The notes under the pieces were generated by a model. That model saw only the letters and a program-made list of their open reading frames with translations, did no database searches and was not told the origin of the DNA. A stretch of 32,000 nucleotides of DNA from Coprobacillaceae bacterium (GTDB lineage Bacteria > Bacillota_I > Bacilli_A > Erysipelotrichales > Coprobacillaceae): NCBI GenBank assembly GCA_963675515.1, contig OY776328.1, positions 240,001 through 272,000 on the forward strand, in the 5' to 3' direction. The translations under genes and the position numbers were made by a program. Numbering within the stretch: the stretch's first letter is position 1; the number at the start of each line of letters is the position of its first letter. Positions 6,848 through 25,940 of the stretch are shown in pieces.

Positions 6848-6885
6848 TCTCTATCTCCTTTAGACTATTCTTTTAAAAAGTATTC

Positions 6886-7003
6886 CGGCTTTGCTTCAAC
6901 GTTCTGCAACCTTCCCGGGAAAATCCCAGTGGTATTCAGCAGTTCTCCACATTACGGCGGCGGATCCGCTCAGGTTTCACACCTGATTCCAATTTTAAAA
7001 GGT
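6886..7003 (-). ncRNA. Cobalamin (B12) riboswitch
   Basis: The minus strand reads ...TGGAATCAGGTGTGAAACCTGAGCGGATCCGCCGCCGTAATGTGGAGAACTGCTGAATACCACTGGGATTTTCCCGGGAAGGTTGC. This contains the conserved GGAA..GGTG.GAA.CC...C.G..CCGCC.CCGTAA core and a B12-box-like CCACTGGG...CCGGGAAGG. A TATAAT (minus, 7015-7010) sits just upstream. Confidence 0.8.
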
Positions 7004-7055
7004 GAAATCATTATAGCGAATAATCGTTTCAAAAACAACAAATAACATAATATAT

Positions 7056-10011: not shown

Positions 10012-10262
10012 AATAAAAAAAAGTACCAATTAAAGGACGAAAATTCCGCGGTACCACCTTTATTATACGTATCCGTATCTCTTGAAGCGTTAACGCCGCC
10101 AACGTTTATTTCTACATATCGAAATAACTGCTCCTGAACCATTCGACTATATCTGCCTGTCAGTTTCCACCAGCCACTGACTCTCTAAAAGGCACTTGAT
10201 AGCTTCTTTCAATCACCGCATTTTCCAGTACATTTTAACGCCTGAAGCCGATTTTGTCAAAC
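10012..10262 (-). ncRNA. T-box leader (probable Met specifier) upstream of metG
   Basis: The minus strand contains AGAGAG (GA motif), CTGGTGGAAAC (stem I distal region), an AUG in a plausible specifier context (TCGAATGG), and the conserved T-box AAAGGTGGTACCGCGG (10061-10046). A hairpin and a T8 run (terminator, ~10060-10012) follow. Confidence 0.8.
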
Positions 10263-14689: not shown

Positions 14690-14731
14690 AAACCTGCAGC
14701 TTGGGAACAATTCTCAAAGCTGCAGGTTTTT
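14688..14731. terminator. Intrinsic terminator of scrB (probably bidirectional in the ancestral locus)
   Basis: A5, then the 9-bp stem CCTGCAGCT / AGCTGCAGG, then T6. Confidence 0.8.
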
Positions 14732-16243
14732 TGTATGCCGGGCATGGCATATATCTAGGTGGTGAAAGTCCACTGTGGGGGTGACGTCGCAACTGCCAAC
14801 CACTAGCCAATATCAAGGGTGTCCATCGTGAGGTGGAATCTGAAAGAAGATGGAGGCAAAACCCTGGTCCGAGGAACACGAATCACATCAGGCATGTAAT
14901 GGGGACGAGCGTGCAAAACAACGCAAAGTCATAAGAGGTTGCGGAATGATACTATTACATGTAAATGTGGCGGATATATGGGGTGAAATAGATATGACCT
15001 TATCCCGGGAGATCTTGCGAGGGAGCAATCCTAGTAACAACGAATCGCAAGAAGTCAGCAGACGTCGTAGTAGCGAAGAAGTGGCTGTAATGGTCATGGA
15101 GTGAAGGACTGAATAAATCTATCAGTTATTAAAATTAGGCTTGATTTCATCACGCGAAAACGCAAAGACAGTCGAACACACTAGTAAAGCCCGAAAGAAG
15201 AATGTAGGGAAAGTGAGCCTGATGAATAGCGAAAACAATGGAGGTAACGGAAATATGAAAACTGATAACGAATTACTGGAACAAATGCTTAGCCATACCA
15301 ATCTCAAACAAGCGTATGTACAAGTTAAACGAAACAAAGGTGCATGCGGAATTGATGGTATGGATGTCTACCAACTTAAGGGATATCTAGATGAACATCT
15401 GGATGAAATTAAGGCAAGCATAATGAACCGCACGTATAAACCACAACCGGTTAGGAGAGTGGAAATACCAAAAGCTGATGGTGGAACAAGAAATCTAGGA
15501 GTGCCTACAGTCATCGATAGATTCATTCAGCAAGCTATCGCCCAGGTATTAACACCAATCTATGAACCAATCTTCAGTGACAACAACTATGGTTTTAGAC
15601 CCAATAGATGTTGTGAAATGGCAGTTATCAAGGCATTGGAATACATGAACGAAGGATTCCAATGGGTCGTGGATATTGACTTGGAGAAGTTTTTCGACAA
15701 TATCAACCACGATAAACTTATTACATTGGTGATGAAGGATGTAAAGAGCGGTGAGATTGTATCGCTTATTAGAAAATTCCTGGTAAGTGGAATTATGATT
15801 GACGATGAATATAAGGAATCTATAGTCGGTACTATGCAAGGTGGTCCGTTAAGTCCACTACTATCCAATATATTTCTTAATGAATTGGACAAGGAAATGG
15901 AAGCTAGGGGGTTACACTATACACGTTATGCCGATGACTGTATGATTTTCGTTGGGAGTAGCAAAGCAGCTGACAGAGTCATGGCATCAATAAGCAAATT
16001 CATCGAAACCAAGCTAGGCCTGAAAGTCAATATGACCAAAAGCAAAGTTGCAAAACCCAACGACATAAAGTATTTGGGATTTGGATTCTACTATGATACT
16101 TTCAACCAGCTTTGGAAAGCAAAACCGCATGCCAAATCAATAAAGACACTTAAAGAAAAATTGAAGGAATTGACTAATCGAAGTTGGTCAATTCCCTGGG
16201 ATTATAGATGCTTAAAGATACGGCAACTAATAGTCGGGTGGAT

Positions 16244-16251
16244 AAACTACT
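16244..16251. repeat. 8-bp target-site duplication of the IS256-family element (left copy)
   Basis: AAACTACT at 16244-16251 is repeated at 17619-17626. Confidence 0.8.
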
Positions 16252-17618
16252 GATAGTGTAAAATATTTTGTGTAAATAGGATTTCAACTTTTAAGTAGAA
16301 AAAAGGGTGCAACCCTTGTAAAATTAGTTCGACGAAAACAATTTACGAGAGGATTACACCCATGAACTATTTTACAACAACTTTACTTAGAAGTCTAATA
16401 TCAAATGATAATAATCTGCCAGCTTTTGAGCAAGTAGTCTCAGAACTTTTCCGGAGCGAATTGGAGAATGCCATCAACGATATTTTGAAGTCCGAACTTA
16501 CCGTTTTTCTTGATTATGAGAAATATGACCGATCTGAGAATTCGAATTCAAGAAATGGCTATTACAACCGCGATTACAACACTAAATATGGTGTGTTGAA
16601 CCTGCGCATACCACGTGACCGTCAAGGGGACTTTGATTCACCGCTGGTCCCTAAATATCAGCGAAACGATCTAGCTACCACCAACACTGTCATCGATCTA
16701 TTTAATTCAGGGATGACCAACAGCGACATTGTAAAAACTGTTGAATCAATCTACGGCAAGAAATACTCCAGACAGACAGTTTCCAATATTACTAAGGAAA
16801 TAGTTGCCCATGTTGAAGCCTTTAAAAATCGCCCGTTAAACAAGCAATACGCAGTTGTTTATACCGACGCTACAGTTATTCCTTTGCGGCGCGATACCGT
16901 GTCTAAAGAGGCGGTTCATATCGCTATAGGAGTGACTCTAGAGGGAACAAAGGAAATACTAGGATATTCAATTGCGCCAACCGAATCCGCAACAACATGG
17001 CGGGAACTGTTTGAAGAGTTCAAAACACGCGGTTTGGAAGCGGTTGCGTTATTCTGTACTGACGGGCTAACCGGTGTTGAGAACGCCATTGAAGACACTT
17101 TTCCGATGGCCAAAATCCAACGTTGCCTGGTGCATGTTTCAAGAAACATTACAGCCAAAGCAAGAGTGAAAGACCGTAGTGAGATTGCACAGGATTTTAA
17201 GCGAGTTTACAATTGCGAAACTGAAAAAGCGGCGAGTGAAGAGCTTAAGGAGTTCATCACCAAATGGGGGCAAAAATACCCAAAAGTGGCAAAATCACTT
17301 GAAGAGAATTCAAATCTATTCACTTTCTATTTGTTCCCTGAATCGGTACGCAAGAGCATATATACAACAAACCTGATCGAAGGTTTCAATAAACAGCTCA
17401 AGCGGAAAATCAAGGCTAAAGAACAATTCCCAAATGAGGAAGCTGTGGAGAAATACATCGTTTCGCAATTTGAACAATATAACCAAAAATTCATGAACCA
17501 TACCCATAAGGGATTCAAAGGAATATCTTACGAACGTTGGTTCCTGCTAGAAGAAGAATAACCAAGATGATCAGTAAGAACTAATTTTACAAATTTACAC
17601 AAAAATATTGACACTACC
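16252..17618 (+). mobile_element. IS256-family insertion sequence (1367 bp)
   Basis: Imperfect 26-bp terminal IRs: GATAGTGTAAAATATTTTGTGTAAAT versus the reverse complement GGTAGTGTCAATATTTTTGTGTAAAT (21/26 match). Single transposase ORF. 8-bp TSD. Confidence 0.85.
16362..17561 (+). CDS. IS256-family (mutator-type) transposase
   Basis: 399 aa. Typical IS256 pattern: RNGYYNRDYNTKYGVLNLRIPRDRQG, and a DDE triad in the contexts YTDAT, CTDGL, NLIEGFN. Confidence 0.92.
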   Translation: MNYFTTTLLRSLISNDNNLPAFEQVVSELFRSELENAINDILKSELTVFLDYEKYDRSENSNSRNGYYNRDYNTKYGVLNLRIPRDRQGDFDSPLVPKYQRNDLATTNTVIDLFNSGMTNSDIVKTVESIYGKKYSRQTVSNITKEIVAHVEAFKNRPLNKQYAVVYTDATVIPLRRDTVSKEAVHIAIGVTLEGTKEILGYSIAPTESATTWRELFEEFKTRGLEAVALFCTDGLTGVENAIEDTFPMAKIQRCLVHVSRNITAKARVKDRSEIAQDFKRVYNCETEKAASEELKEFITKWGQKYPKVAKSLEENSNLFTFYLFPESVRKSIYTTNLIEGFNKQLKRKIKAKEQFPNEEAVEKYIVSQFEQYNQKFMNHTHKGFKGISYERWFLLEEE

Positions 17619-17626
17619 AAACTACT
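17619..17626. repeat. 8-bp target-site duplication of the IS256-family element (right copy)
   Basis: AAACTACT, identical to 16244-16251. Confidence 0.8.
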
Positions 17627-17862
17627 ATAAAATAGGTAACTTCAAAGGTACGTGCGAAAACCTCGACGGGTGGATTAGATTTAGAATAAGAATGTATCTC
17701 TGGAAGAAATGGAAAACCATTAAGAACAGGAGAAAACAACTTAGAAAACTTGGAGCAAAACGATGGCAATATGAATCATGGTCAAACTCTAGGAAATCAT
17801 ACGCCCGGTGTGCTAGCACATTTCTTAAGACAAGGGTCACAAACGAGTTACTCAAAAGAAAA

Positions 17863-17887
17863 GGCCTAGTATCACTACTAGACCAAT
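17863..17887. repeat. Long (22-25 bp) target duplication of the IS1634-like element (left copy)
   Basis: GGCCTAGTATCACTACTAGACCAAT is repeated exactly at 19910-19934. The last 3 nt are ambiguous between the IS end and the duplication. Confidence 0.85.
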
Positions 17888-18077
17888 GGAGTCAACTTTA
17901 GGAACTTTTTCCTAGTTAGCTCTTTTTATATCTATATGCATCTTAAATATAAATCTCTGACGCTTAATTCAAGTTTAGTTTAAATCTTCACATGAAAAAA
18001 AGCGCATAATCCCCCATAGAATTTTAGCGTTTTTTTAAAATTGCGATATTCATGTTATAATGATAGTGTATTCTTGA

Positions 18078-19616
18078 CTACGGGGCAACTGTTCTCATGA
18101 CGCCTTTGATGGTTTGAATTTTTGGATAGTTTCGCCCATCAAGCGAGAATCGGTAGTAGAATCCACTAGGAACTACTCTGCCCCAACGTTGACTGTGCCT
18201 GTTCTTGCGGACGGGCACTTTTATTGTTTGGGCTACGGCAACTATTTGCTTAATCCTTTTTCGCATCAGTGTTTTCTTATGACTGTAAAACGGATACAGC
18301 AGGTTGTTCTCCATCAGCAGATTATGTAGTTGTTTGATGTTGACCCGGTACTGGATATTATCTTCATCATTTTTATCGGAGGTTTCTTCACGATTAGGCC
18401 GGCGGCGGTGCTTGCCCGGGTGCCTGCTAAGATACCTGTCGATTTCTTTCCTGATCACTCCCAAGATATTGTAAAGCACGATTTTGCCATAGATGCAGCA
18501 TTGGGATACGGTGTCGGATTCGCTAACGTGTCGTTCCAGTTCCATATCGGTTTTTAGCGTTTTATATGCCACCTCAATATTCCAACGCTTTGAATAGAGC
18601 TCGATGATATCCTCGTGGCTGAACTCTTCTTTTGACAAACTGGTAAAGTATGTTATATCTGATTCAATGGACTCCCCGAATTTATTACTGTATGCATAAG
18701 TAAATTTTACGACTCTTATCTTCACTTTGGGGTTATCTTCTCTGATTTTACGGGCTTCATCAGAGAACCGGAATCTTTTCCGCCATAGCCTGTCAACATC
18801 TACCTCGATCCACTCATCATTTGAAGTCATTTCACTGACTTGCTTTTTAAAGAAGTTGGATTTGGCACGGATGCAATAATCAAATCCTAAGTGCTCAAGA
18901 TGACTGATAAGCTCGACTGAGCCATAGTAGCGATCAGCAAGATAAATCACTTTCTTGCCAGCCAACAGATCCCCACAACTATAAAGGTGTTGGAAGGCAA
19001 GTGGAATTTCTGAGTAAGGGGCAGGTCTCATCATGAAATCCAAAAAGATGCCGTTGGTGACGTCATATAGTCCAGCTGATTTGGACAGAACTTTCTTAAC
19101 ATCGAAAATATCTTTGACGTACTGGTTTTTCCAAAAGCCGAAGTTATAAATATTGTGGATGCTATAGGGAATTTCTAGAAAGGTCCCATCTTCAGCTAAA
19201 AGCGTATACCCTTTATATGTCTTAGGCAGCTTGCTTTGATAGAACTCCTTGGCAAACTCTTTGAATAAATATCTGAATACTGATGGATTGAGTTTTTTGA
19301 TATCGACGTTAAGAGCTTGCTTGGTGATCCTTTTTTCCAAGCGGTCAGTGGAGCAGAAATACTTGGTCAAGTCCGTGTTAGTGTCCTTAGAATTTCTAAA
19401 AACAAAGTAGAGAATTACATCCCTGAAAGTCATAGTCCGATTGCGAGTAAAATTAGAACTAAAGTTCCTAGATAAATTACGAGTGATGTCAGAAGACAAG
19501 ACATCCGCGAAAGAATTGAAGAAATCTGTCATCTTATTAGTCTTAACTACATTATTCATCATCGTATACCAACCTTGGTTTCTTTTTAGCGAAAGCCGCT
19601 TTGAGGAAAGGAACAC
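18078..19616 (-). CDS. IS4/IS1634-family DDE transposase, main ORF (catalytic part)
   Basis: 512 aa. IS4 signature Y-x2-R-x3-E-x6-K in LYSKRWNIEVAYKTLK, plus YLADRYYGS. Confidence 0.85.
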   Translation of the reverse strand: MFLSSKRLSLKRNQGWYTMMNNVVKTNKMTDFFNSFADVLSSDITRNLSRNFSSNFTRNRTMTFRDVILYFVFRNSKDTNTDLTKYFCSTDRLEKRITKQALNVDIKKLNPSVFRYLFKEFAKEFYQSKLPKTYKGYTLLAEDGTFLEIPYSIHNIYNFGFWKNQYVKDIFDVKKVLSKSAGLYDVTNGIFLDFMMRPAPYSEIPLAFQHLYSCGDLLAGKKVIYLADRYYGSVELISHLEHLGFDYCIRAKSNFFKKQVSEMTSNDEWIEVDVDRLWRKRFRFSDEARKIREDNPKVKIRVVKFTYAYSNKFGESIESDITYFTSLSKEEFSHEDIIELYSKRWNIEVAYKTLKTDMELERHVSESDTVSQCCIYGKIVLYNILGVIRKEIDRYLSRHPGKHRRRPNREETSDKNDEDNIQYRVNIKQLHNLLMENNLLYPFYSHKKTLMRKRIKQIVAVAQTIKVPVRKNRHSQRWGRVVPSGFYYRFSLDGRNYPKIQTIKGVMRTVAP

Positions 19617-19749
19617 TTTCTCCGTCTACAAGACCGAAATTAATAAGAACGCGGTGTTTAGATACACCATTTTCACGATAAGACTCAACAAGTGCACAAA
19701 AATAGGTATTATCTTTACCTTTATTGTTCTTAACAGCTCTGACAAACAT
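19552..19749 (-). CDS. N-terminal segment of the IS1634-like transposase, in a different frame (frameshifted or two-ORF arrangement)
   Basis: The 65-aa ORF MFVRAVKNNKGKDNTYFCALVESYRENGVSKHRVLINFG... resembles the conserved N-terminus of IS1634-family transposases. It overlaps the main ORF by 65 nt, around an A-rich tract (GCTAAAAAGAAACC). Confidence 0.55.
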   Translation of the reverse strand: MFVRAVKNNKGKDNTYFCALVESYRENGVSKHRVLINFGLVDGESVPFLKAAFAKKKPRLVYDDE

Positions 19750-19909
19750 AATATCGCCTCTTTTCTTAACTACATTATATCACTATAATGGCTAAATATC
19801 AGCAAATATTACTTATAATCTTAACTACAAATTCAAATCAAATATCGAACAGTTGTCAAAAACATCAAAAAAAGAGCCGACTTAAGGAATTTCTTAAGTT
19901 GACTCCATT

Positions 19910-19934
19910 GGCCTAGTATCACTACTAGACCAAT
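19910..19934. repeat. Long target duplication of the IS1634-like element (right copy)
   Basis: Identical to 17863-17887. Confidence 0.85.
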
Positions 19935-19966
19935 ATCAGTTAAAACATATTTCAGTATAGATTTAA

Positions 19967-19998
19967 ACCGCCGTATGCCGGCCGGCTTGTACGGTGGT
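19967..19998 (+). ncRNA. Group II intron domain V (class C type)
   Basis: ACCGCCGUAU-GCC-GGCC-GGC-UU-GUACGGUGGU. This folds as a 10-bp lower helix, a 2-nt 3' bulge, a 3-bp upper helix and a tetraloop. CGC occupies the catalytic-triad position. Length is 32 nt. Confidence 0.8.
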
Positions 19999-19999
19999 G

Positions 20000-20019
20000 T
20001 TATCCCGATATCGGGATAA
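20000..20019. repeat. Perfect 20-bp palindrome at the left RIT/intron junction
   Basis: TTATCCCGATATCGGGATAA. It consists of two inverted copies of the 9-mer TTATCCCGA, which also recurs inside both RIT inverted repeats. Confidence 0.9.
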
Positions 20020-20023
20020 TCAA

Positions 20024-20107
20024 ACTTATACCGACTTTTGGATTATCCCGACAAATATGTATTTTTGAGGGATAGTCTCTTTTTGTATTATTAAAAGTCG
20101 GGATAAT
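20024..20107. repeat. RIT left terminal inverted repeat (84 bp)
   Basis: Matches the reverse complement of 23367-23450 at 79/84 positions by hand alignment. Confidence 0.9.
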
Positions 20108-20147
20108 TTTATTTTCAGTCTATAATGTAGTTAGGAGGTAGTTTGAA

Positions 20148-21377
20148 ATGAAAAATTTGAATAGTATCGACGAATTAGTTCAGCTTGCTTTAAATAACCT
20201 GAAGTCTCAAGGCTATAATGAACTTACCATTCAGGCCTACGAATCCAGCTACTTTAACCCCATTTTGAAAAGATATTCTGACTTAAACCAAATCAACTAT
20301 AGTCAAGAAATTATGGATTCACTGCTAAAGCTCTATCTTTCGCAACTTCAAAACAAAATTATTAGTAGGACCACCTATAATAAAAGAGTGCGTGGCGTCT
20401 TAATGATCACCGAACTTAATGATTTCGGTTCCTTCAAGTGGAAAGTTTTCACATTTAAGGATGAAATCCCTATATCATCAGGGTTCAAAATGACAATAAA
20501 AGAATATTTGAAAAATAGAGATGTATCTATTAGGACCCTTCAATTTGAAGAGCGAATCCTATATTTATTTTCAAATTTTCTAAACAATCATGATATTTTG
20601 CAACCGAAATTAATAAGTACTAGCGATATAGTGGAATTTATTAAAATCATCTCTAAGGATAACCCAAAATCCATGGATAGAATACTCACTTGTTTGAAAA
20701 AATATTTAGTTAATTTGTACAGAAATAAAAAGATTGATTTTGATATAAGCTCCATCGTTTCCTTTGGTAAAATACGAGACAGGGCATTATATCCGCCGAT
20801 AGATATGATTGATCTTGTAGGAATTTTAAATTCAATTGATAGGGAGACACCTACCGGAAAAAGAAATTATGCGATTATAATATTGGGTGCAATGACAGGG
20901 CTAAGAGCTGGAGATATAGTACGGATTCAGCTTGAAGATATTGATTGGAAAAAACGCAAATTAAATATAGTTCAGGGGAAAACAAATAGTCCCATATCAG
21001 TGCCATTAACTGAGAGTGTCTGTAATGCAATTGCGGACTACATTCTAAATGGAAGACCCAAAACAGATGATAATAGTATTTTTATAAGATCCATAGCTCC
21101 TTTTACGGGGCTTAAAGACGGCTGTTCTATCGCTTCTTTTTTTAGAAGGTATCTATTAAAGGCTGGAATTGAACCATCCCTTAAAACCGGGAACACTTTC
21201 CACTCTATTAGGCGGATGTTTGGGACTCAATTGATTATCAACGGTGTTCCGGTTACAATGATTGCCCAGCTTTTGGGTCACCAATCAGTCATACCTACTA
21301 AGCAATATATTTCACTTGATGTTGAGGGTTTGAGAAAGTGTGCGTTATCGATGGAAACACTTGATGGTAGATTATGA
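20148..21377 (+). CDS. ritA: Tyrosine recombinase, first of trio
   Basis: 409 aa. Catalytic residues in context: GLRAGD (R), GKTNS (K), HSIRR (H-x-x-R), GHQS (H), KQYISL (Y). Preceded by GGAGG. Confidence 0.8.
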   Translation: MKNLNSIDELVQLALNNLKSQGYNELTIQAYESSYFNPILKRYSDLNQINYSQEIMDSLLKLYLSQLQNKIISRTTYNKRVRGVLMITELNDFGSFKWKVFTFKDEIPISSGFKMTIKEYLKNRDVSIRTLQFEERILYLFSNFLNNHDILQPKLISTSDIVEFIKIISKDNPKSMDRILTCLKKYLVNLYRNKKIDFDISSIVSFGKIRDRALYPPIDMIDLVGILNSIDRETPTGKRNYAIIILGAMTGLRAGDIVRIQLEDIDWKKRKLNIVQGKTNSPISVPLTESVCNAIADYILNGRPKTDDNSIFIRSIAPFTGLKDGCSIASFFRRYLLKAGIEPSLKTGNTFHSIRRMFGTQLIINGVPVTMIAQLLGHQSVIPTKQYISLDVEGLRKCALSMETLDGRL

Positions 21378-22324
21378 AATTCATATATGAATATATCCCC
21401 GAAATGATTAATTATCGAATTGATTTAGGGTATTCGTTGCAACCAACTTCTTGGTATCTTAAAGATTTTTCCAGATACTTGAAGAAAAATTTTCCCAGTG
21501 AAACAATGCTTACTCAAGAAATGATCATGCCTTGGTGTGTGCAAAGGAAAACTGAGCAGGCGTGCAGTTTTCGATCTAGAATGTCATCAATAAGACAATT
21601 TACACTTTACCTTTTTGCGAACGGAGCTTCCAATTTTGTACTTGATTTGAATTTCTTACCTAAAATCACAAGATATGTACCCTATATATTTACAAACATG
21701 GAGCTTAAAACCATTTTTGAAATGGCTGATAGTAAAAAATATATCAAACCGATTACAGCTAAAAATAGAATCATATCTGTAATCTATCGATTGATATACT
21801 TTTGTGGTCTTCGGCCAAACGAAGGTCGTGAAATAATGAAAAAAGATTTGGACTTGGATAACGGAACTATACTTATTAGAAAAAACAAAAATCATAAGGA
21901 ACGTCTAATTCCAATGGCAGCTGATGTAACAGATATGATGCGCGAGTATATCGATGAAATGAAGTTAATATTTCCAAATACTGATTATGTTTTTCCATCT
22001 CCAACCGGGCTTCCATATCATTCAAAATGGTTAAGGACGGAATTCTTGAAGATTTGGGATGAGATAAAACCCGAGGGTGGTAGAGCTCGTGTAAGAGTAT
22101 ACGATTTACGTCATCGCTGGGCGACAACTGTCATGATGAAACTCTTAAACGATGGTGAAGATTTATATTCATTGCTTCCCTACATGAGTGCCTATATGGG
22201 TCATTCCAATTTCGAAGACACGGCTTATTATATTCACTTACTACCAGAGGAATTAATTAAATCATCTGAAGTTGATTGGGAAAGGTTTTCCTCAATCATT
22301 CCTGAGGTGTCTAAGTATGACTGA
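21374..22324 (+). CDS. ritB: Tyrosine recombinase, second of trio
   Basis: 316 aa. Catalytic contexts: GLRPNEG, LRHRW, GHSN, AYYIHL. ATGA start/stop overlap with the first gene. Confidence 0.8.
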   Translation: MKFIYEYIPEMINYRIDLGYSLQPTSWYLKDFSRYLKKNFPSETMLTQEMIMPWCVQRKTEQACSFRSRMSSIRQFTLYLFANGASNFVLDLNFLPKITRYVPYIFTNMELKTIFEMADSKKYIKPITAKNRIISVIYRLIYFCGLRPNEGREIMKKDLDLDNGTILIRKNKNHKERLIPMAADVTDMMREYIDEMKLIFPNTDYVFPSPTGLPYHSKWLRTEFLKIWDEIKPEGGRARVRVYDLRHRWATTVMMKLLNDGEDLYSLLPYMSAYMGHSNFEDTAYYIHLLPEELIKSSEVDWERFSSIIPEVSKYD

Positions 22325-23366
22325 AAATTCATTATGTTTCTTCAAAATGATTAGAGATTATTTTGAGTCTTTCTTACCAAAACAAAAAGGAAACAGCTTC
22401 AACACAATCAAATCCTATAAAATCACTATGAATCAATTTCTAAAACATGCATGTAGCGCCAATAAAATCAAACTATCTGAATTTTGCTTCGAGATGACCT
22501 CGGTTAAGCTGCTTGAGAATTTTTTGGATGACGGTGAGCAATATTCCGGGTGGTCCTGCAGTACTAGAAATCAGAAACTGGCAGCCATACGTTCGTTTTA
22601 CAAATATGTTGCCTCTCGTAATATTTCTTTAATGGCATATTACCAAGAACTACTTGCGGTCCCAATGAAAAAGATGTCCAAGAATAATCAGATTGAATAC
22701 TTCTCCGAAAATGTTTTAGAAACATTACTTAGGCAGCCAAACACAAAAACAAAAAAAGGAATACGGGATTTGGTTTTCATGATACTAATGTATGACACTG
22801 GAGCTAGAATTCAGGAAATTTTGGATCTCAAAATTGGAGACCTATTCCTATTTAGTGAAGTCCCGTACGTGAAACTAACTGGAAAGGGCAGTAAAGTAAG
22901 ATTAGTCCCAATTATGGAAAAAACGGTAAACCACTTGAAAAATTATCTATCGATATTTCACTTAAAATCAAAAGACGATAGCTTCGTTTTTTGTTCAAAA
23001 CGAAAGGAAATCATCAGTCAACTGTCGCCAGACGCTGTTCAAAAATTTATTGATAAATATTGTGCATCCGCTCATGATGTAGATGAAGAAGTACCTATTC
23101 ATATTTATCCGCATATGTTCCGCCATTCTAGAGCCATGCATTTATATCATGGTGGAATGCCGCTACCACTTATTTCCGAATGGCTTGGACACGCGCAAGT
23201 TTCTACAACAATGGAATTCTATGCGCAGCCAACATTAGAAATGAAAAAACAGGCAATTGAGCAGGCTACAGAAGCAATTAGCCCCTTAATAAATATTTCT
23301 AATAAATACAATCTGGATTTTGAAAATGATGAAGAACTGATCAAAAGGCTTTATGGATTGATATGA
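22317..23366 (+). CDS. ritC: Tyrosine recombinase, third of trio
   Basis: About 349 aa from the ATG at 22317, which overlaps the second gene by 8 nt. Catalytic contexts: TGARIQE, FRHSRA, GHAQVSTT, EFYAQ. Confidence 0.8.
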   Translation: MTENSLCFFKMIRDYFESFLPKQKGNSFNTIKSYKITMNQFLKHACSANKIKLSEFCFEMTSVKLLENFLDDGEQYSGWSCSTRNQKLAAIRSFYKYVASRNISLMAYYQELLAVPMKKMSKNNQIEYFSENVLETLLRQPNTKTKKGIRDLVFMILMYDTGARIQEILDLKIGDLFLFSEVPYVKLTGKGSKVRLVPIMEKTVNHLKNYLSIFHLKSKDDSFVFCSKRKEIISQLSPDAVQKFIDKYCASAHDVDEEVPIHIYPHMFRHSRAMHLYHGGMPLPLISEWLGHAQVSTTMEFYAQPTLEMKKQAIEQATEAISPLINISNKYNLDFENDEELIKRLYGLI

Positions 23367-23450
23367 GTTATCCCGACTTTTAATAATCCAAAAAAGGACT
23401 ATCCCTCAAAAATACATAATTGTCGGGATAATCCAAAAGTCGGTATAAGT
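23367..23450. repeat. RIT right terminal inverted repeat (84 bp)
   Basis: Reverse complement of 20024-20107, with 5 mismatches. Confidence 0.9.
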
Positions 23451-23455
23451 GGTGT

Positions 23456-23503
23456 GAGAGGTCGAAAATAAATAGGGAAACTATTTATTTTCTCCTACTC
23501 GAT
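23456..23503 (+). ncRNA. Putative group II intron domain VI and 3' end
   Basis: The helix is GAGAGG..G-AAAAUAAAUAG-GGAAA-CUAUUUAUUUU-C.CCU-A-CUC. An unpaired A at 23497 is the 7th nucleotide from a terminal ...GAU (AY) at 23503. Confidence 0.55.
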
Positions 23504-24234
23504 TAATGTCCATTTGAATTTTGGCCCGAACCGACTTGGCCCCCGGAACCTTGGGCGTTTTGGTTTGAATTGGTGTTTTCGCCACCGTTGTCTGTGTTTC
23601 CGTTCTGGCTGTTGTTGCCATTTTGATTCTGCTCCTGATTCTTGATTTGCATCTGGAGCTGGTTATATGACAGTTTGAAGCAGTCTTCAATGTCCGAATC
23701 AGGGTCGAGCTGGGCCAATCTCAAACATGCATGGTATTTGCCAAAGGTCATATTGTATTGATGGGCGATTTGGTAATTGTTCTGCTGGGCTTCGACGAAT
23801 CCGGTCAACGCACTGTCGATTTTGGCATTGTCGTTGAAGTAGACAACAGTTATTGTCACCGGATTGCCAACTTTGGCTTGGAGATTTTCGATGACATCAA
23901 GATAATTGTCATGCAGATAATCATGTTCTCCTATGAGTGCTGTGCTGGAATCGTCATATCCCATGATTTTGATAACTTCGTTATTCGAATCAACTTCCAA
24001 TTCCACGGCCATATCTCCATCCAGGGACAATGCCATTACTGCCTGGGACTTGTTGAAATAGTTGAAAGATAAGAACACCGCGAGAAATATCGCCAGACTT
24101 GAAAGCACGGCTTTTGAAAAATATGGTATACGCCTTTTTTTTGTTGCCGGTCGATAAATATGGTTCAACGTCTGGTTTTTTAGCTCCGGCGATGCTTTTA
24201 TCCGATCAAAATCGGATTTAAATTTTTCATTCAT
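23503..24234 (-). CDS. Membrane anti-sigma factor (single TM) with an N/Q/G-rich C-terminal tail
   Basis: Short cytoplasmic N-terminus, a TM segment (AVLSSLAIFLAVFLSF), an extracytoplasmic domain, and the tail NQEQNQNGNNSQNGNTDNGGENTNSNQNAQGSGGQVGSGQNSNGH. Overlaps the 3' end of the ECF sigma gene. The second ATG (24234) has better SD spacing than 24243. Confidence 0.7.
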   Translation of the reverse strand: MNEKFKSDFDRIKASPELKNQTLNHIYRPATKKRRIPYFSKAVLSSLAIFLAVFLSFNYFNKSQAVMALSLDGDMAVELEVDSNNEVIKIMGYDDSSTALIGEHDYLHDNYLDVIENLQAKVGNPVTITVVYFNDNAKIDSALTGFVEAQQNNYQIAHQYNMTFGKYHACLRLAQLDPDSDIEDCFKLSYNQLQMQIKNQEQNQNGNNSQNGNTDNGGENTNSNQNAQGSGGQVGSGQNSNGH

Positions 24235-24706
24235 TAAAATCATCTCCTAGCTGTTTTTTCAATAATTCGCGGCCTCTTTTCAAGTCGCTGTAAATGCTGT
24301 TGGTTTTCCTGTTGAGGATCTTGGAAATCTGGTCGGCGGTGTAACCCTCATAATAGTGAAGGTAGATGGCCAACTTGTAATTCTTGGGCAACATCAGAAC
24401 CGCTGAAATAAGGTCGCTGTTGCCAAAATTTTCCTCGGTCTGGATGTCCCTTAGCTGGTCGATGTCCACCGTCTTTTTGAATATGTTTTTGAATGTGTTC
24501 TTGCATTCATTGATGGTGACTCTTATCAACCAGGCTTTTTCATGATCCAATGACTCAAAAGGAGTTTCACGAGTAGCGTATTTTAAGAAGACATTTTGAA
24601 ATACGTCCTGACAATCCGCATCGTTTTTCAAGTTCAAAATGCAGATTTTTTTTATCATGTCTCCGTATTGGTCAATCTTCATTCGACAGATATCTTCGCT
24701 AATCAT
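24227..24706 (-). CDS. ECF-type sigma-70 family RNA polymerase sigma factor
   Basis: 159 aa. Region 2 (DCQDVFQNVFLKY...AWLIRVTINECKN) and region 4 (YEGYTADQISKILNRKTNSIYSDLKRGRELL). Confidence 0.88.
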   Translation of the reverse strand: MISEDICRMKIDQYGDMIKKICILNLKNDADCQDVFQNVFLKYATRETPFESLDHEKAWLIRVTINECKNTFKNIFKKTVDIDQLRDIQTEENFGNSDLISAVLMLPKNYKLAIYLHYYEGYTADQISKILNRKTNSIYSDLKRGRELLKKQLGDDFNE

Positions 24707-24736: not shown

Positions 24737-25168
24737 TTATTGCTTACTATAATTATGCTCCGATTGTGATTGGTTTGCAAATGCATTCTCGTTGTCACAT
24801 TCGTTTTGGCATTCACCGTCATTGTCCTGAGTTTGGACTCTTTGACGGGTTTGAGCTTGGGTCTGTTCCTGATCCTGAGTTTGAACCTCTGCTTGTTCTT
24901 GAGACTGGGTCTGGTTTTGAACACAATTTCTATTTCTTGTTTGCGTTTGAACTTGTTCTTGGGTCTGGTCGCATGTACCGTCTCCTTGTGAGTTTTCTCC
25001 CACTAGATCACAAATACCATCTTCGTTTTCATCCACGAAGTTTGATGCCTGCAATATTGTCGCTTCACCTGAAGCGTTTTGGGCTACCGGACCTGCCTGG
25101 GCCATTACCGTAGTCGCACCTGAACCGAGCATTACCATTAAAACTGAACTGATTACAATGTTTTTCAT
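24737..25168 (-). CDS. Small secreted acidic Q/T-rich Cys-motif protein, copy 1 (co-transcribed with the sigma/anti-sigma genes)
   Basis: Signal peptide MKNIVISSVLMVMLGSGATTVMAQA. The mature part contains FVDENEDGICD, GDGTCDQ and DNDGECQNECD. GGAGG SD. Only 30 nt and no terminator separate it from the sigma gene. Confidence 0.8.
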   Translation of the reverse strand: MKNIVISSVLMVMLGSGATTVMAQAGPVAQNASGEATILQASNFVDENEDGICDLVGENSQGDGTCDQTQEQVQTQTRNRNCVQNQTQSQEQAEVQTQDQEQTQAQTRQRVQTQDNDGECQNECDNENAFANQSQSEHNYSKQ

Positions 25169-25511: not shown

Positions 25512-25940
25512 TTATTGATTGTTGCCAAGACTGTAAGATGACTGTGTTTGGTTTGCCAATGCATTCTCATTGTCACATTCGTTTTGACATTCACCGTCAT
25601 TGTCCTGAGTTTGGATTCTTTGACGGGTTTGAGCTTGGGTCTGATCCTGAGTTTGAGCCTCTGCTTGTTCTTGAGACTGGGTCTGGTTTTGAATACAATT
25701 TCTGTTTCTTGTTTGCGTTTGAGCTTGTTCTTGGGTCTGGTCGCATGTACCGTCTCCTTGTGAGTTTTCTCCCACTAGATCACAAATACCATCTTCGTTT
25801 TCATCCACGAAGTTTGATGCCTGCAATGTTGTCGCTTCACCTGAAGCGTTTTGGGCTACCGGACCTGCCTGGGCCATTACCGTAGTCGCACCTGAACCGA
25901 GCATTACCATTAAAACTGAACTGATTACAATGTTTTTCAT
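25512..25940 (-). CDS. Small secreted acidic Q/T-rich Cys-motif protein, copy 2
   Basis: 142 aa. Near-identical to copies 1 and 3 apart from a few substitutions, one in-frame indel, and a different C-terminus from copy 1. Confidence 0.8.
   Translation of the reverse strand: MKNIVISSVLMVMLGSGATTVMAQAGPVAQNASGEATTLQASNFVDENEDGICDLVGENSQGDGTCDQTQEQAQTQTRNRNCIQNQTQSQEQAEAQTQDQTQAQTRQRIQTQDNDGECQNECDNENALANQTQSSYSLGNNQ

Follow-up and report, generated by a model that had tools for sequence, protein, structure and literature searches.

How does a mobile element that encodes only recombinases choose its insertion site, and how does it get there? The question is raised by a locus in a Coprobacillaceae bacterium (GenBank assembly GCA_963675515.1, contig OY776328.1, positions 240,001 to 272,000 of the forward strand), where a recombinase-in-trio (RIT) element lies between domains V and VI of a group II intron; the whole stretch of 32,000 nucleotides is referred to here as the window, and its first letter is position 1. 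RITs (Van Houdt 2009, 2012; Ricker 2013) are widespread and were named in 2009, and their movement has never been reproduced. In a review table of 2023, RITs are entered as untested for target specificity, empty site, recombination sites and the way they move (PMC10214605), and in the published view the repeats of RITs "do not fit" recombinase sites. The window holds a known kind of element; what is new is its target specificity and the resolved architecture of its sites. Comparison of about 60 related copies for insertion site places the element in a large, mostly gut and rumen RIT clade that inserts site-specifically at the domain V/VI junction of introns, and the locus and its relatives give a precise attL, attR and empty-site set for RITs. 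We consider it about 75% probable that this is a RIT of an intron-targeting clade that would move by way of a circle with two inverted core sites and a 6-bp exchange at the domain V/VI junction.

An intact RIT element within a group II intron

The intact RIT element spans window positions 20000-23454 (3,455 bp), between domains V and VI of the intron (coordinates of all features are collected in Table 1). It carries three co-oriented genes, ritA, ritB and ritC, whose products all match PF00589 (E = 4e-27, 3e-22 and 3e-31, respectively) and which overlap by 4 bp (ATGA, 21374-21377) and 8 bp (22317-22324); the longest open reading frame (ORF) for the third gene has a TTG start at 22272 and 364 aa. 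No ORF beyond the three recombinases fits within the 3,455 bp, and the element encodes no DDE or HUH enzyme, tyrosine recombinases being its only products. The three overlapping genes had already been recognized in an original prediction made from the letters of the window alone, with product lengths (409, 316 and 349 aa) that our annotation confirms. That prediction also credited each protein with the full R..K..HxxR..H..Y set, which is complete in RitA and RitC and is not in RitB, where the sequence VYDLRH (window 22100-22120) has Tyr at the first His of HxxR (Y-D-L-R). The same substitution is common to RitB of loci L001, L016 and L058, and the His is kept in RitB of L009 and L098. RitB may be catalytically altered or act as a regulator.

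Several features of the proteins are those expected of RITs. An AlphaFold (AF2) model of RitA, with a predicted local distance difference test (pLDDT) score of 86, has four-helix bundles at residues 7-93 and 111-192 ahead of the catalytic domain, and solved recombinases, of which XerA, lambda Int (core), IntI, Tn1549 Int, XerH and Cre are the closest folds, cover only about 280-340 alignment columns of the 409-residue protein. In a sequence alignment, RitC reaches about 25 residues farther beyond its catalytic Tyr than RitA or RitB. A double core-binding domain in RitA and an extra C-terminal helix in RitC are RIT hallmarks (Smyshlyaev 2021, PMC8138268), and short gene overlaps, often ATGA, have been described for RITs (PMC3414803, PMC2864759). 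The two four-helix bundles of RitA, the RitC extension, the order of the trio and the gene overlaps thus identify the element as a RIT, and with the inverted repeats they agree with the identity originally proposed. The proposed RitA/RitB/RitC order was likewise found throughout: in tblastn comparisons with 98 loci, ORFs 1, 2 and 3 each best matched the gene at the same position in every trio examined, across phyla, including those of the beta-proteobacterium Ferrovum (L009; 414, 308 and 349 aa) and of a Desulfobacterales metagenome-assembled genome (L008). This comparison covers the trios among the 98 loci, and the proteins of the archetypal RIT of strain CH34 stand outside it.

All three genes have evolved under purifying selection, the ratio of non-synonymous to synonymous substitution rates (dN/dS) between the window and L011, a second copy of the element described below, being 0.24 for ritA, 0.10 for ritB and 0.09 for ritC. 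The window RIT is probably still functional.

The empty site and a second copy of the element

Intact introns homologous to that of the window are present in L012-L014, with an intron-encoded protein (IEP) 82% identical to that of the window. They read ...CGTACGGTGGTGTGAGAGGTCGG..., with a single GTGGTGT, and the stretch corresponding to the empty site matches the Rfam domain V-VI model RF00029 with 45.7 bits, against a gathering score of 40. The window has GTGGTGT on both sides of the element, at 19994-20000 and 23449-23455, as had been predicted, whereas the intact intron of L012 has it once, and in a BLAST comparison this copy (L012 4318-4324) maps to both window copies. Because the intact introns of L012-L014 carry the joined sequence with GTGGTGT once, the predicted empty site is, on this comparison, real; the joining of the two flanks into domain V, linker and domain VI that was expected from the window is found exactly in L012.

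A second copy of the same element is carried by L011, which was found via P0123, a member of the RitA cluster, exact-sequence look-ups of RitA itself and of the other cluster mates P0001, P0121 and P0122 having yielded no contig. Its RitA, RitB and RitC are 92%, 97% and 95% identical to those of the window, and it occupies the corresponding domain V/VI junction of a different intron, which lies on the opposite strand and has an IEP that is only 36% identical. Rfam at gathering thresholds gave no match in L011. In the sense of its intron, L011 has the 6-mer GTTTGA three times, the flanking copies being equal to the one inside the element. Its 20-bp palindrome (see below) is at the opposite end of the gene block from that of the window, yet again beside domain V.

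Architecture of the element ends

The 84-bp inverted repeats with 79/84 matches that had been noted for this element are essentially those we find, as repeats of 83 nt that are 95% complementary (20024-20106 and 23368-23450). The left repeat was supposed to touch the direct repeat, which it does not: a perfect 20-bp palindrome (20000-20019) and the 6-mer TCAAAC (20020-20025), neither of them previously described, intervene. The inverted repeats consist of copies of a 10-bp motif, TTATCCCGAC. It occurs eight times within the two ends, and 11 matches were found in the whole window against 1.7 expected. We refer to the outermost copies within the inverted repeats as B1 and B1' and to the palindrome, which is part of the element, as B2.B2'. 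The palindrome is present only at the domain V end of the element. We considered, and rejected, that it might belong to the intron or be left over from another element, as it is missing from intact introns and present in every RIT.

The layout is constant in all 27 elements with three readable spacers and reads target, S, B2.B2', S' (inverted), B1...ritABC...B1', S, target, where each spacer S or S' is 6 bp long. Among the 27 are the RIT of Robertmurraya, whose RitA is 33% identical to that of the window, and members of a clade with RitA about 30% identical, and the Ferrovum element (L009) has an extra palindrome at one end as well. If the ends of the window element were joined, the predicted junction would be B1'-S-B2|B2'-S'-B1, a palindrome containing two identical, inverted core sites with 10-bp arms and a 6-bp spacer; the element-side core sites would thus have the classic layout of Xer, Cre and lambda-type sites. 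As single-stranded DNA, the joined ends fold into one 194-nt hairpin (-89 kcal/mol, z = -24).

Target specificity

A RitA profile was used to gather 80 further loci, to which loci from other look-ups were added, and element ends were read by script; in a scan of species-representative genomes, no relative exceeded 33% identity. The target rule that follows applies to the clade with RitA at least 35% identical to that of the window, for which 27 distinct palindrome-side junctions were available. All 27 adjoin the domain V sequence ...GCCGTAT...GTACG. In 26 of them the flank folds as a domain V hairpin with its 2-nt 3' bulge, closing exactly at the spacer, a fold found in 0 of 10 flanks from the more distant clade. 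The opposite junction, where readable, is followed by a domain VI-like hairpin that ends in ...CCTAC or ...CTAC, and the neighbouring IEP gene, where visible, lies on the plus strand upstream of ritA or on the minus strand downstream of ritC, as predicted by insertion at the intron 3' end. Rfam detected domains I-IV in L024, L029, L045 and L058, with two classes of intron model, and no domains I-IV in L032, L033 and several others, where the intron call comes from the IEP and the domain V/VI sequences. Since other copies were expected to share the flanks of the window if the original prediction was right, it is of note that L011 and 25 further distinct junctions lie at domain V/VI.

The position of the 6-mer within the intron could be fixed by covariation. 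Across 15 rebuilt or intact sites, 96% of domain V cells are paired and 10 of 14 pairs show compensatory changes, a level reached in 0 of 500 shuffles. The 3' strand of the domain V basal helix is made up of spacer positions 1-5, and positions 3-4 show covariation with the 5' strand. This marks the 6-mer as sequence native to the intron and gives a crossover region that consists of the end of domain V and a single linker base. The earlier placement of the insertion at the domain V/VI junction thus holds, and its assignment to the linker does not, the core being the last five bases of the domain V 3' strand plus one base of the linker. Similarly, the first reading of the 5-7 bp repeat as a crossover core is supported, with its size refined to 6 bp; the seventh base, T, opens the B2 arm at one junction and belongs to the linker at the other.

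Several arrangements depart from the common one. In L015-L018 the placement of the IEP gene is an exception, as an intron is nested inside ritA. This nesting is reciprocal in L016 (557-2480; also in L015, L017 and L018), where a group II intron with an IEP 75% identical to that of the window lies antisense within ritA, and the RIT that contains it itself occupies the domain V/VI junction of another intron. L022 (1155-4614) lacks the palindrome and is flanked on each side by domain VI with 6 nt of exon, L039 (290-3793) has the palindrome and domain V on both sides, and the left side of L063 lacks both the palindrome and domain V. The forms in L022 and L039 look like products of recombination between copies.

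Spacers, orientation and signs of activity

The three spacers are identical in 17 of 27 elements. In four, the window among them, the outer pair matches and the inner spacer does not, and in the remaining six the outer two differ from each other. The 6-mers are, from this comparison, an exchangeable crossover region rather than a target-site duplication, because six elements have unequal 6-mers at their two junctions and because a third copy is present internally. A clear example of unequal junctions is L016, with spacers GTTCGG, GTGGTG and GTGCAA, the outer pair differing at 4 of 6 positions. Its relative L020, whose intron is of that type too, carries GTGCAA three times, indicating that this 6-mer is the native one. 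Most elements, including that of the window, have identical junction 6-mers; in L016, L056 and L068 the 6-mer at the palindrome-side junction is foreign, and this domain V-side 6-mer breaks the domain V basal helix. In L016 and L056 the native 6-mer stands on the side of domain VI, and relatives in the same intron type (L020 and L024) have the native 6-mer of L016 and L068 at their domain V junction. The outer GTGGTG of the window belongs to the intron's own sequence, and the internal GTTTGA is of the L011 target type. Earlier targets seem to be recorded in the internal spacers: the window has kept GTTTGA (L011 type), and L016 has kept GTGGTG (window type).

The rit genes are in the sense orientation relative to the intron at 17 junctions and antisense at 10, and the palindrome is nevertheless on the domain V side at all 27, an orientation rule predicted by two inverted, equivalent core sites and one asymmetric spacer. 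Both orientations were also encountered at a single locus. L028 and L026, from different human-gut metagenomes, have elements identical over 3,360 nt, and the same 1.36-kb host flank (98.4%) on opposite sides, which could reflect either inversion in place or excision followed by re-insertion. The comparison includes L027, and L071 shares the arrangement of L028. The presence of the same element in two introns, and of an identical element in both orientations at one locus, provides comparative support for mobility as a unit. In addition, many relatives were assembled as contigs of 3.3-3.6 kb, near the length of the element. In L076, L089, L049/L051 and L070 two RIT trios adjoin each other as tandem or inverted pairs, which suggests that RITs insert beside or into one another.

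A model for movement and its alternatives

In the mechanism that we favor, the integrated ends would recombine to form a circle with the junction B1'-S-B2|B2'-S'-B1, whose near-perfect palindrome would provide two identical, inverted core sites, each with 10-bp arms around a 6-bp spacer. One of these sites would pair with the intron via the 6-bp crossover region (the last 5 nt of the domain V 3' strand and one linker nucleotide), and strand exchange by the tyrosine recombinases would then put the element between domains V and VI. As either core site would be usable, the rit genes could end up sense or antisense to the intron, and the asymmetry of the spacers would keep the B2.B2' palindrome always on the domain V side. 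Matching spacers would be the rule and mismatches would be tolerated, one junction then receiving a foreign 6-mer, and the internal spacer that was not used could retain the sequence of an earlier target. Excision would restore an intron reading ...CGTACGGTGGTGTGAGAGG... The circular intermediate, the positions of cleavage, the assignment of Rit proteins to half-sites and the recognition of intron DNA are parts of this scheme that we infer. Insertion splits the ribozyme core and so probably inactivates the intron that is entered.

The flanking repeat could instead be read as an ordinary target-site duplication, produced by a staggered cut and gap repair in the manner of DDE transposons, in keeping with the single copy in the intact intron and with the identical flanking 6-mers of 21 of 27 elements, including that of the window. 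This reading is very improbable and largely refuted, since the flanking 6-mers differ in six elements, 17 elements hold a third, inverted copy internally that duplication cannot produce, the only enzymes encoded are tyrosine recombinases, with no DDE or HUH enzyme among them, and the 6-mer is flanked by 10-bp motifs in inverted orientation, the arrangement of a recombinase core site. The preference for a crossover core over a duplication that was expressed in the original prediction is supported by these inverted motifs, the internal spacer copy and the six unequal pairs. We give still less credence to common descent, in which a RIT entered an ancestral intron once and has since been spread as cargo by retrohoming with no targeting at all. 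Every element of the clade with a readable flank is indeed in an intron, and such introns are multicopy and mobile. Common descent is contradicted, however, by near-identical elements in introns with IEPs 36% identical, by host introns of different Rfam D1-D4 model classes, by the occurrence of both gene orientations, by intact sister introns that lack the element, and by RITs of other clades, with ends built in the same way, that occupy IS66 and IS21-type transposase genes. Moreover, retrohoming needs group II ribozyme activity, which a 3.5-kb insert between domains V and VI is expected, from general knowledge, to abolish.

A closer competitor retains the element and the target and changes the chemistry. 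A folded single strand, in which B1'-S-B2 pairs with B2'-S'-B1 into one hairpin-borne core site, would undergo exchange of one strand, with replication resolving the product; this would resemble CTX-phage attP(+) and integron attC, with resolution by replication as proposed for SE elements and Tn554, and the DNA hairpins of domains V and VI might be part of what is recognized. The single 194-nt hairpin formed by the joined ends, the recovery of exonuclease-resistant RIT DNA with no circle junction (PMC5737581) and the lack of sequence similarity between target and element arms make folded-strand exchange a live rival to a double-stranded circle. Further points in its favor are that RitA is nearest, among solved structures, to Xer, integron and lambda-type recombinases, and that the foreign 6-mer is on the palindrome side in all three clear mismatches (L016, L056 and L068), the polarity that one-strand exchange predicts. 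However, any long inverted repeat yields a hairpin automatically, three cases do not suffice to establish a polarity, with L033 perhaps showing the opposite one, a single-stranded stage lacks direct evidence, and both orientations of an identical element at one locus are most simply explained by double-strand inversion between inverted core sites. On balance we regard the folded strand as unlikely. Doubtful too, if perhaps worth entertaining, is a more elaborate view in which the clade would be a dedicated parasite and inactivator of group II introns that reads the shape of the domain V/VI hairpins, with polar one-strand exchange from a folded hairpin site completed by replication, spacers serving as a rewritable record of targets, and the recombinases dividing the B1, B2 and target half-sites among themselves.

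Several observations weigh against the double-stranded circle at an intron target. All of the evidence is static sequence comparison, from which the anatomy of the element, its empty site, the target and orientation rules, the variable spacers, the purifying selection and the orientation polymorphism at one locus can be read; no transposition intermediate, excision product or same-locus empty allele was observed. In a mobilome study RIT DNA was enriched after exonuclease treatment, but no circle junction was found (PMC5737581). Both outer spacers of the window are native while the internal one differs, where segregation of a mismatched heteroduplex would have left one foreign 6-mer, so that one must assume repair, or that the element had resided in this intron family before. 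The flanks are unclear or not those of an intron at four loci of the clade (L052, L059, L060 and L066), three loci are rearranged (L022, L039 and L063), and the comparison leaves out P0121 and P0122, which are RitA paralogues from the source genome. Finally, the arms of the target resemble those of the element at chance level (1-6 of 14 positions), leaving recognition of the intron unexplained by arm sequence. For this reason we dropped the idea that the intron is recognized through resemblance to the element arms; recognition may involve a dedicated subunit or DNA shape.

Comparison with other RITs and recombinase systems

As described for RITs, whose archetype is ritA1B1C1 of Cupriavidus metallidurans CH34, the window element is about 3.5 kb long, is bounded by terminal inverted repeats and has at one of its ends an "overlapping palindromic sequence" (PMC3414803). 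It also shares with them ATGA-type overlaps and the A-B-C order of tyrosine-recombinase genes of about 410, 315 and 340 aa. It is unlike described RITs in its target, the domain V/VI junction of a group II intron, and in having ends resolved into B1, B2 and 6-bp spacers. No domain V/VI targeting, spacer/arm architecture or orientation rule was found in the RIT literature examined, which has Ricker et al. 2013 outside its scope, and full-text literature searches returned nothing on RITs with introns and no newer mechanistic RIT work. RITs are known inside other mobile elements, in tnpA of IS66, in tnpA of Tn6049 and in radC on islands (PMC2864759, PMC3414803). RIT clades with RitA about 30-33% identical to that of the window (L001-L004, L080, L081, L093, L097 and L098) have the same end architecture and other targets: the Robertmurraya RIT is in an IS66 transposase gene, L081 is in an IS21-type transposase gene (rve and Mu-transpos_C_2) and L080 is in a Bro-N gene. 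The flank of a Lentibacillus RIT resembles, by eye, the IS66 flank in Robertmurraya, and a further target in a distant clade is a conserved coding site, ...GCCTTTG|6 bp|GGC....

Like the window RIT, Tn554, SE (strand-biased circularizing integrative) and GInt elements bring several tyrosine recombinases together and insert site-specifically. To our knowledge, Tn554 has no terminal inverted repeats. These elements need a fourth, small protein that is not a recombinase (TnpC, Srap or GinD), for which the window RIT has no room, and they are large and cargo-bearing, with chromosomal att targets rather than introns, whereas the window RIT is cargo-free. In Tn554 and SE elements a 6-bp junction sequence can be carried over from the donor to the new site and is then not duplicated (PMC10214605). 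Unequal junctions are also produced by the integrases of Tn916, Tn1549 and CTnDOT, which similarly tolerate non-identical crossover ("coupling") sequences of 6-7 bp; unlike the window RIT, these systems employ one integrase with Xis, arm-type sites and a loose target (AT-rich or a short consensus), and have no palindromic double core site. Inverted arms of about 10 bp around a crossover region of 6-8 bp are shared with XerCD/dif, Cre/loxP and XerH/difH, from which the RIT differs in its three paralogous recombinases, its two back-to-back core sites sharing a palindrome and its unrelated partner arms. In our comparison of core sites, the element arms B1' and B2 are 10 bp long around 6 bp, the arms of the target bear no relation to these, and identical spacers are usual and not obligatory. 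As in CTX-phage attP(+) and integron attC, a site could form by folding of an imperfect palindrome in single-stranded DNA, with an unrelated duplex as partner; unlike attC, the arms of the RIT palindrome pair almost perfectly, without extrahelical bases.

The end architecture, with two back-to-back core sites and exchangeable 6-bp spacers, is general and comes with a strict orientation rule, and the domain V/VI junction offers a concrete, clonable target of about 60 bp, making a long-open mechanistic question directly testable. The clade would be a mobile element specialized on the most conserved part of another mobile element, a landing site that is multicopy, constrained in sequence and harmless, and entry should kill the intron concerned. 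Other RIT clades appear to treat IS66 and IS21-type transposase genes likewise. Group II introns that seem to lack domain V or VI in assemblies of gut Firmicutes may simply be split by RITs.

The host intron and neighboring genes

The host of the window RIT is a dead, IIC-like group II intron. Its identity is evident from matches to RF02001 (14822-14999, 122.7 bits) and RF01998 (15018-15109), by which Rfam places domains I-IV at 14822-15109, from a reverse transcriptase/maturase ORF (the IEP; start at 15141, TIGR04416 match of 375 bits) and from a rebuilt domain V/VI equal to the RF00029 match in L012. The intron starts at about 14733, directly past the terminator hairpin of a sucrose-6-phosphate hydrolase gene, which is IIC-like behavior. 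Aligned by BLAST with the intact relative L012, it consists of four collinear pieces (14727-16251, 17620-17887, 19909-20000 and 23449-23504), and the gaps between them are filled by three insertions: an IS256-family element, an IS4-family element and the RIT block. The first piece is 83% identical to L012 2471-3997, and its ORF matches RVT_1 and GIIM positions 1-38. The IS256-family insertion has an 8-bp target duplication, AAACTACT (16244-16251 and 17619-17626). The IS4-family insertion lies downstream of the IEP and is flanked by an apparent duplication, 26 bp long, of a hairpin (17862-17887 and 19909-19934), L012 4233-4258 aligning to both flanks. A duplication of 26 bp is unusually long for IS4. 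In domain V of the window the 3' bulge is TT, against a conserved AC in L012 (4290-4321), and the loop differs too, changes that fit with decay of an already dead intron.

Table 1. Features of the split group II intron and the RIT element in the window.
Feature	Position	Strand	Details
Group II intron 5' segment	14733..16251	+	Domains I-IV and IEP N-terminal part (ORF 15141-16253); exact 5' end approximate
IS256-family insertion	16252..17618	+	Splits IEP maturase domain; Transposase_mut E = 2e-115, NF033543
Intron segment with IEP C-terminal end	17619..17887	+	GIIM positions 37-79; 79% identical to L012 3991-4258
IS4-family insertion	17888..19908	-	Transposase 18078-19616 on minus strand; DDE_Tnp_1, NF033592; boundaries approximate
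Intron domain V	19967..19998	+	32 nt, CGC triad
Domain V-side spacer	19994..19999	+	GTGGTG; crossover region: last 5 nt of domain V and 1 linker nt
B2.B2' palindrome	20000..20019	.	Perfect, 20 bp, TTATCCCGAT|ATCGGGATAA; part of element, outside long inverted repeat
Internal spacer	20020..20025	.	TCAAAC, reverse complement of GTTTGA (crossover 6-mer of L011)
Left inverted repeat	20024..20106	+	B1 (TTATACCGAC) 20026-20035; second direct motif 20043-20052; inverted motif 20097-20106
ritA	20148..21377	+	409 aa; two N-terminal four-helix bundles, then catalytic domain
ritB	21374..22324	+	316 aa; Tyr at expected first His of HxxR
ritC	22317..23366	+	349 aa; C-terminal extension past catalytic Tyr
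Right inverted repeat	23368..23450	-	B1' (GTCGGTATAA) 23439-23448
Domain VI-side spacer	23449..23454	+	GTGGTG
Linker T and intron domain VI	23455..23498	+	Intron end ...CCTAC at 23498; 3' exon begins TCGATT

Elsewhere in the window, a T-box leader (128 bits, 10030-10225, minus strand) and a cobalamin riboswitch (66 bits, 6859-7048, minus strand) lie upstream of unrelated genes. Beyond the intron, two near-identical tandem genes on the minus strand (24737-25168 and 25512-25940) encode small secreted proteins rich in Gln, Thr and Glu. Beside them (23503-24706) are a gene for a sigma-70-family factor and one for a putative membrane protein, which might be an anti-sigma factor.

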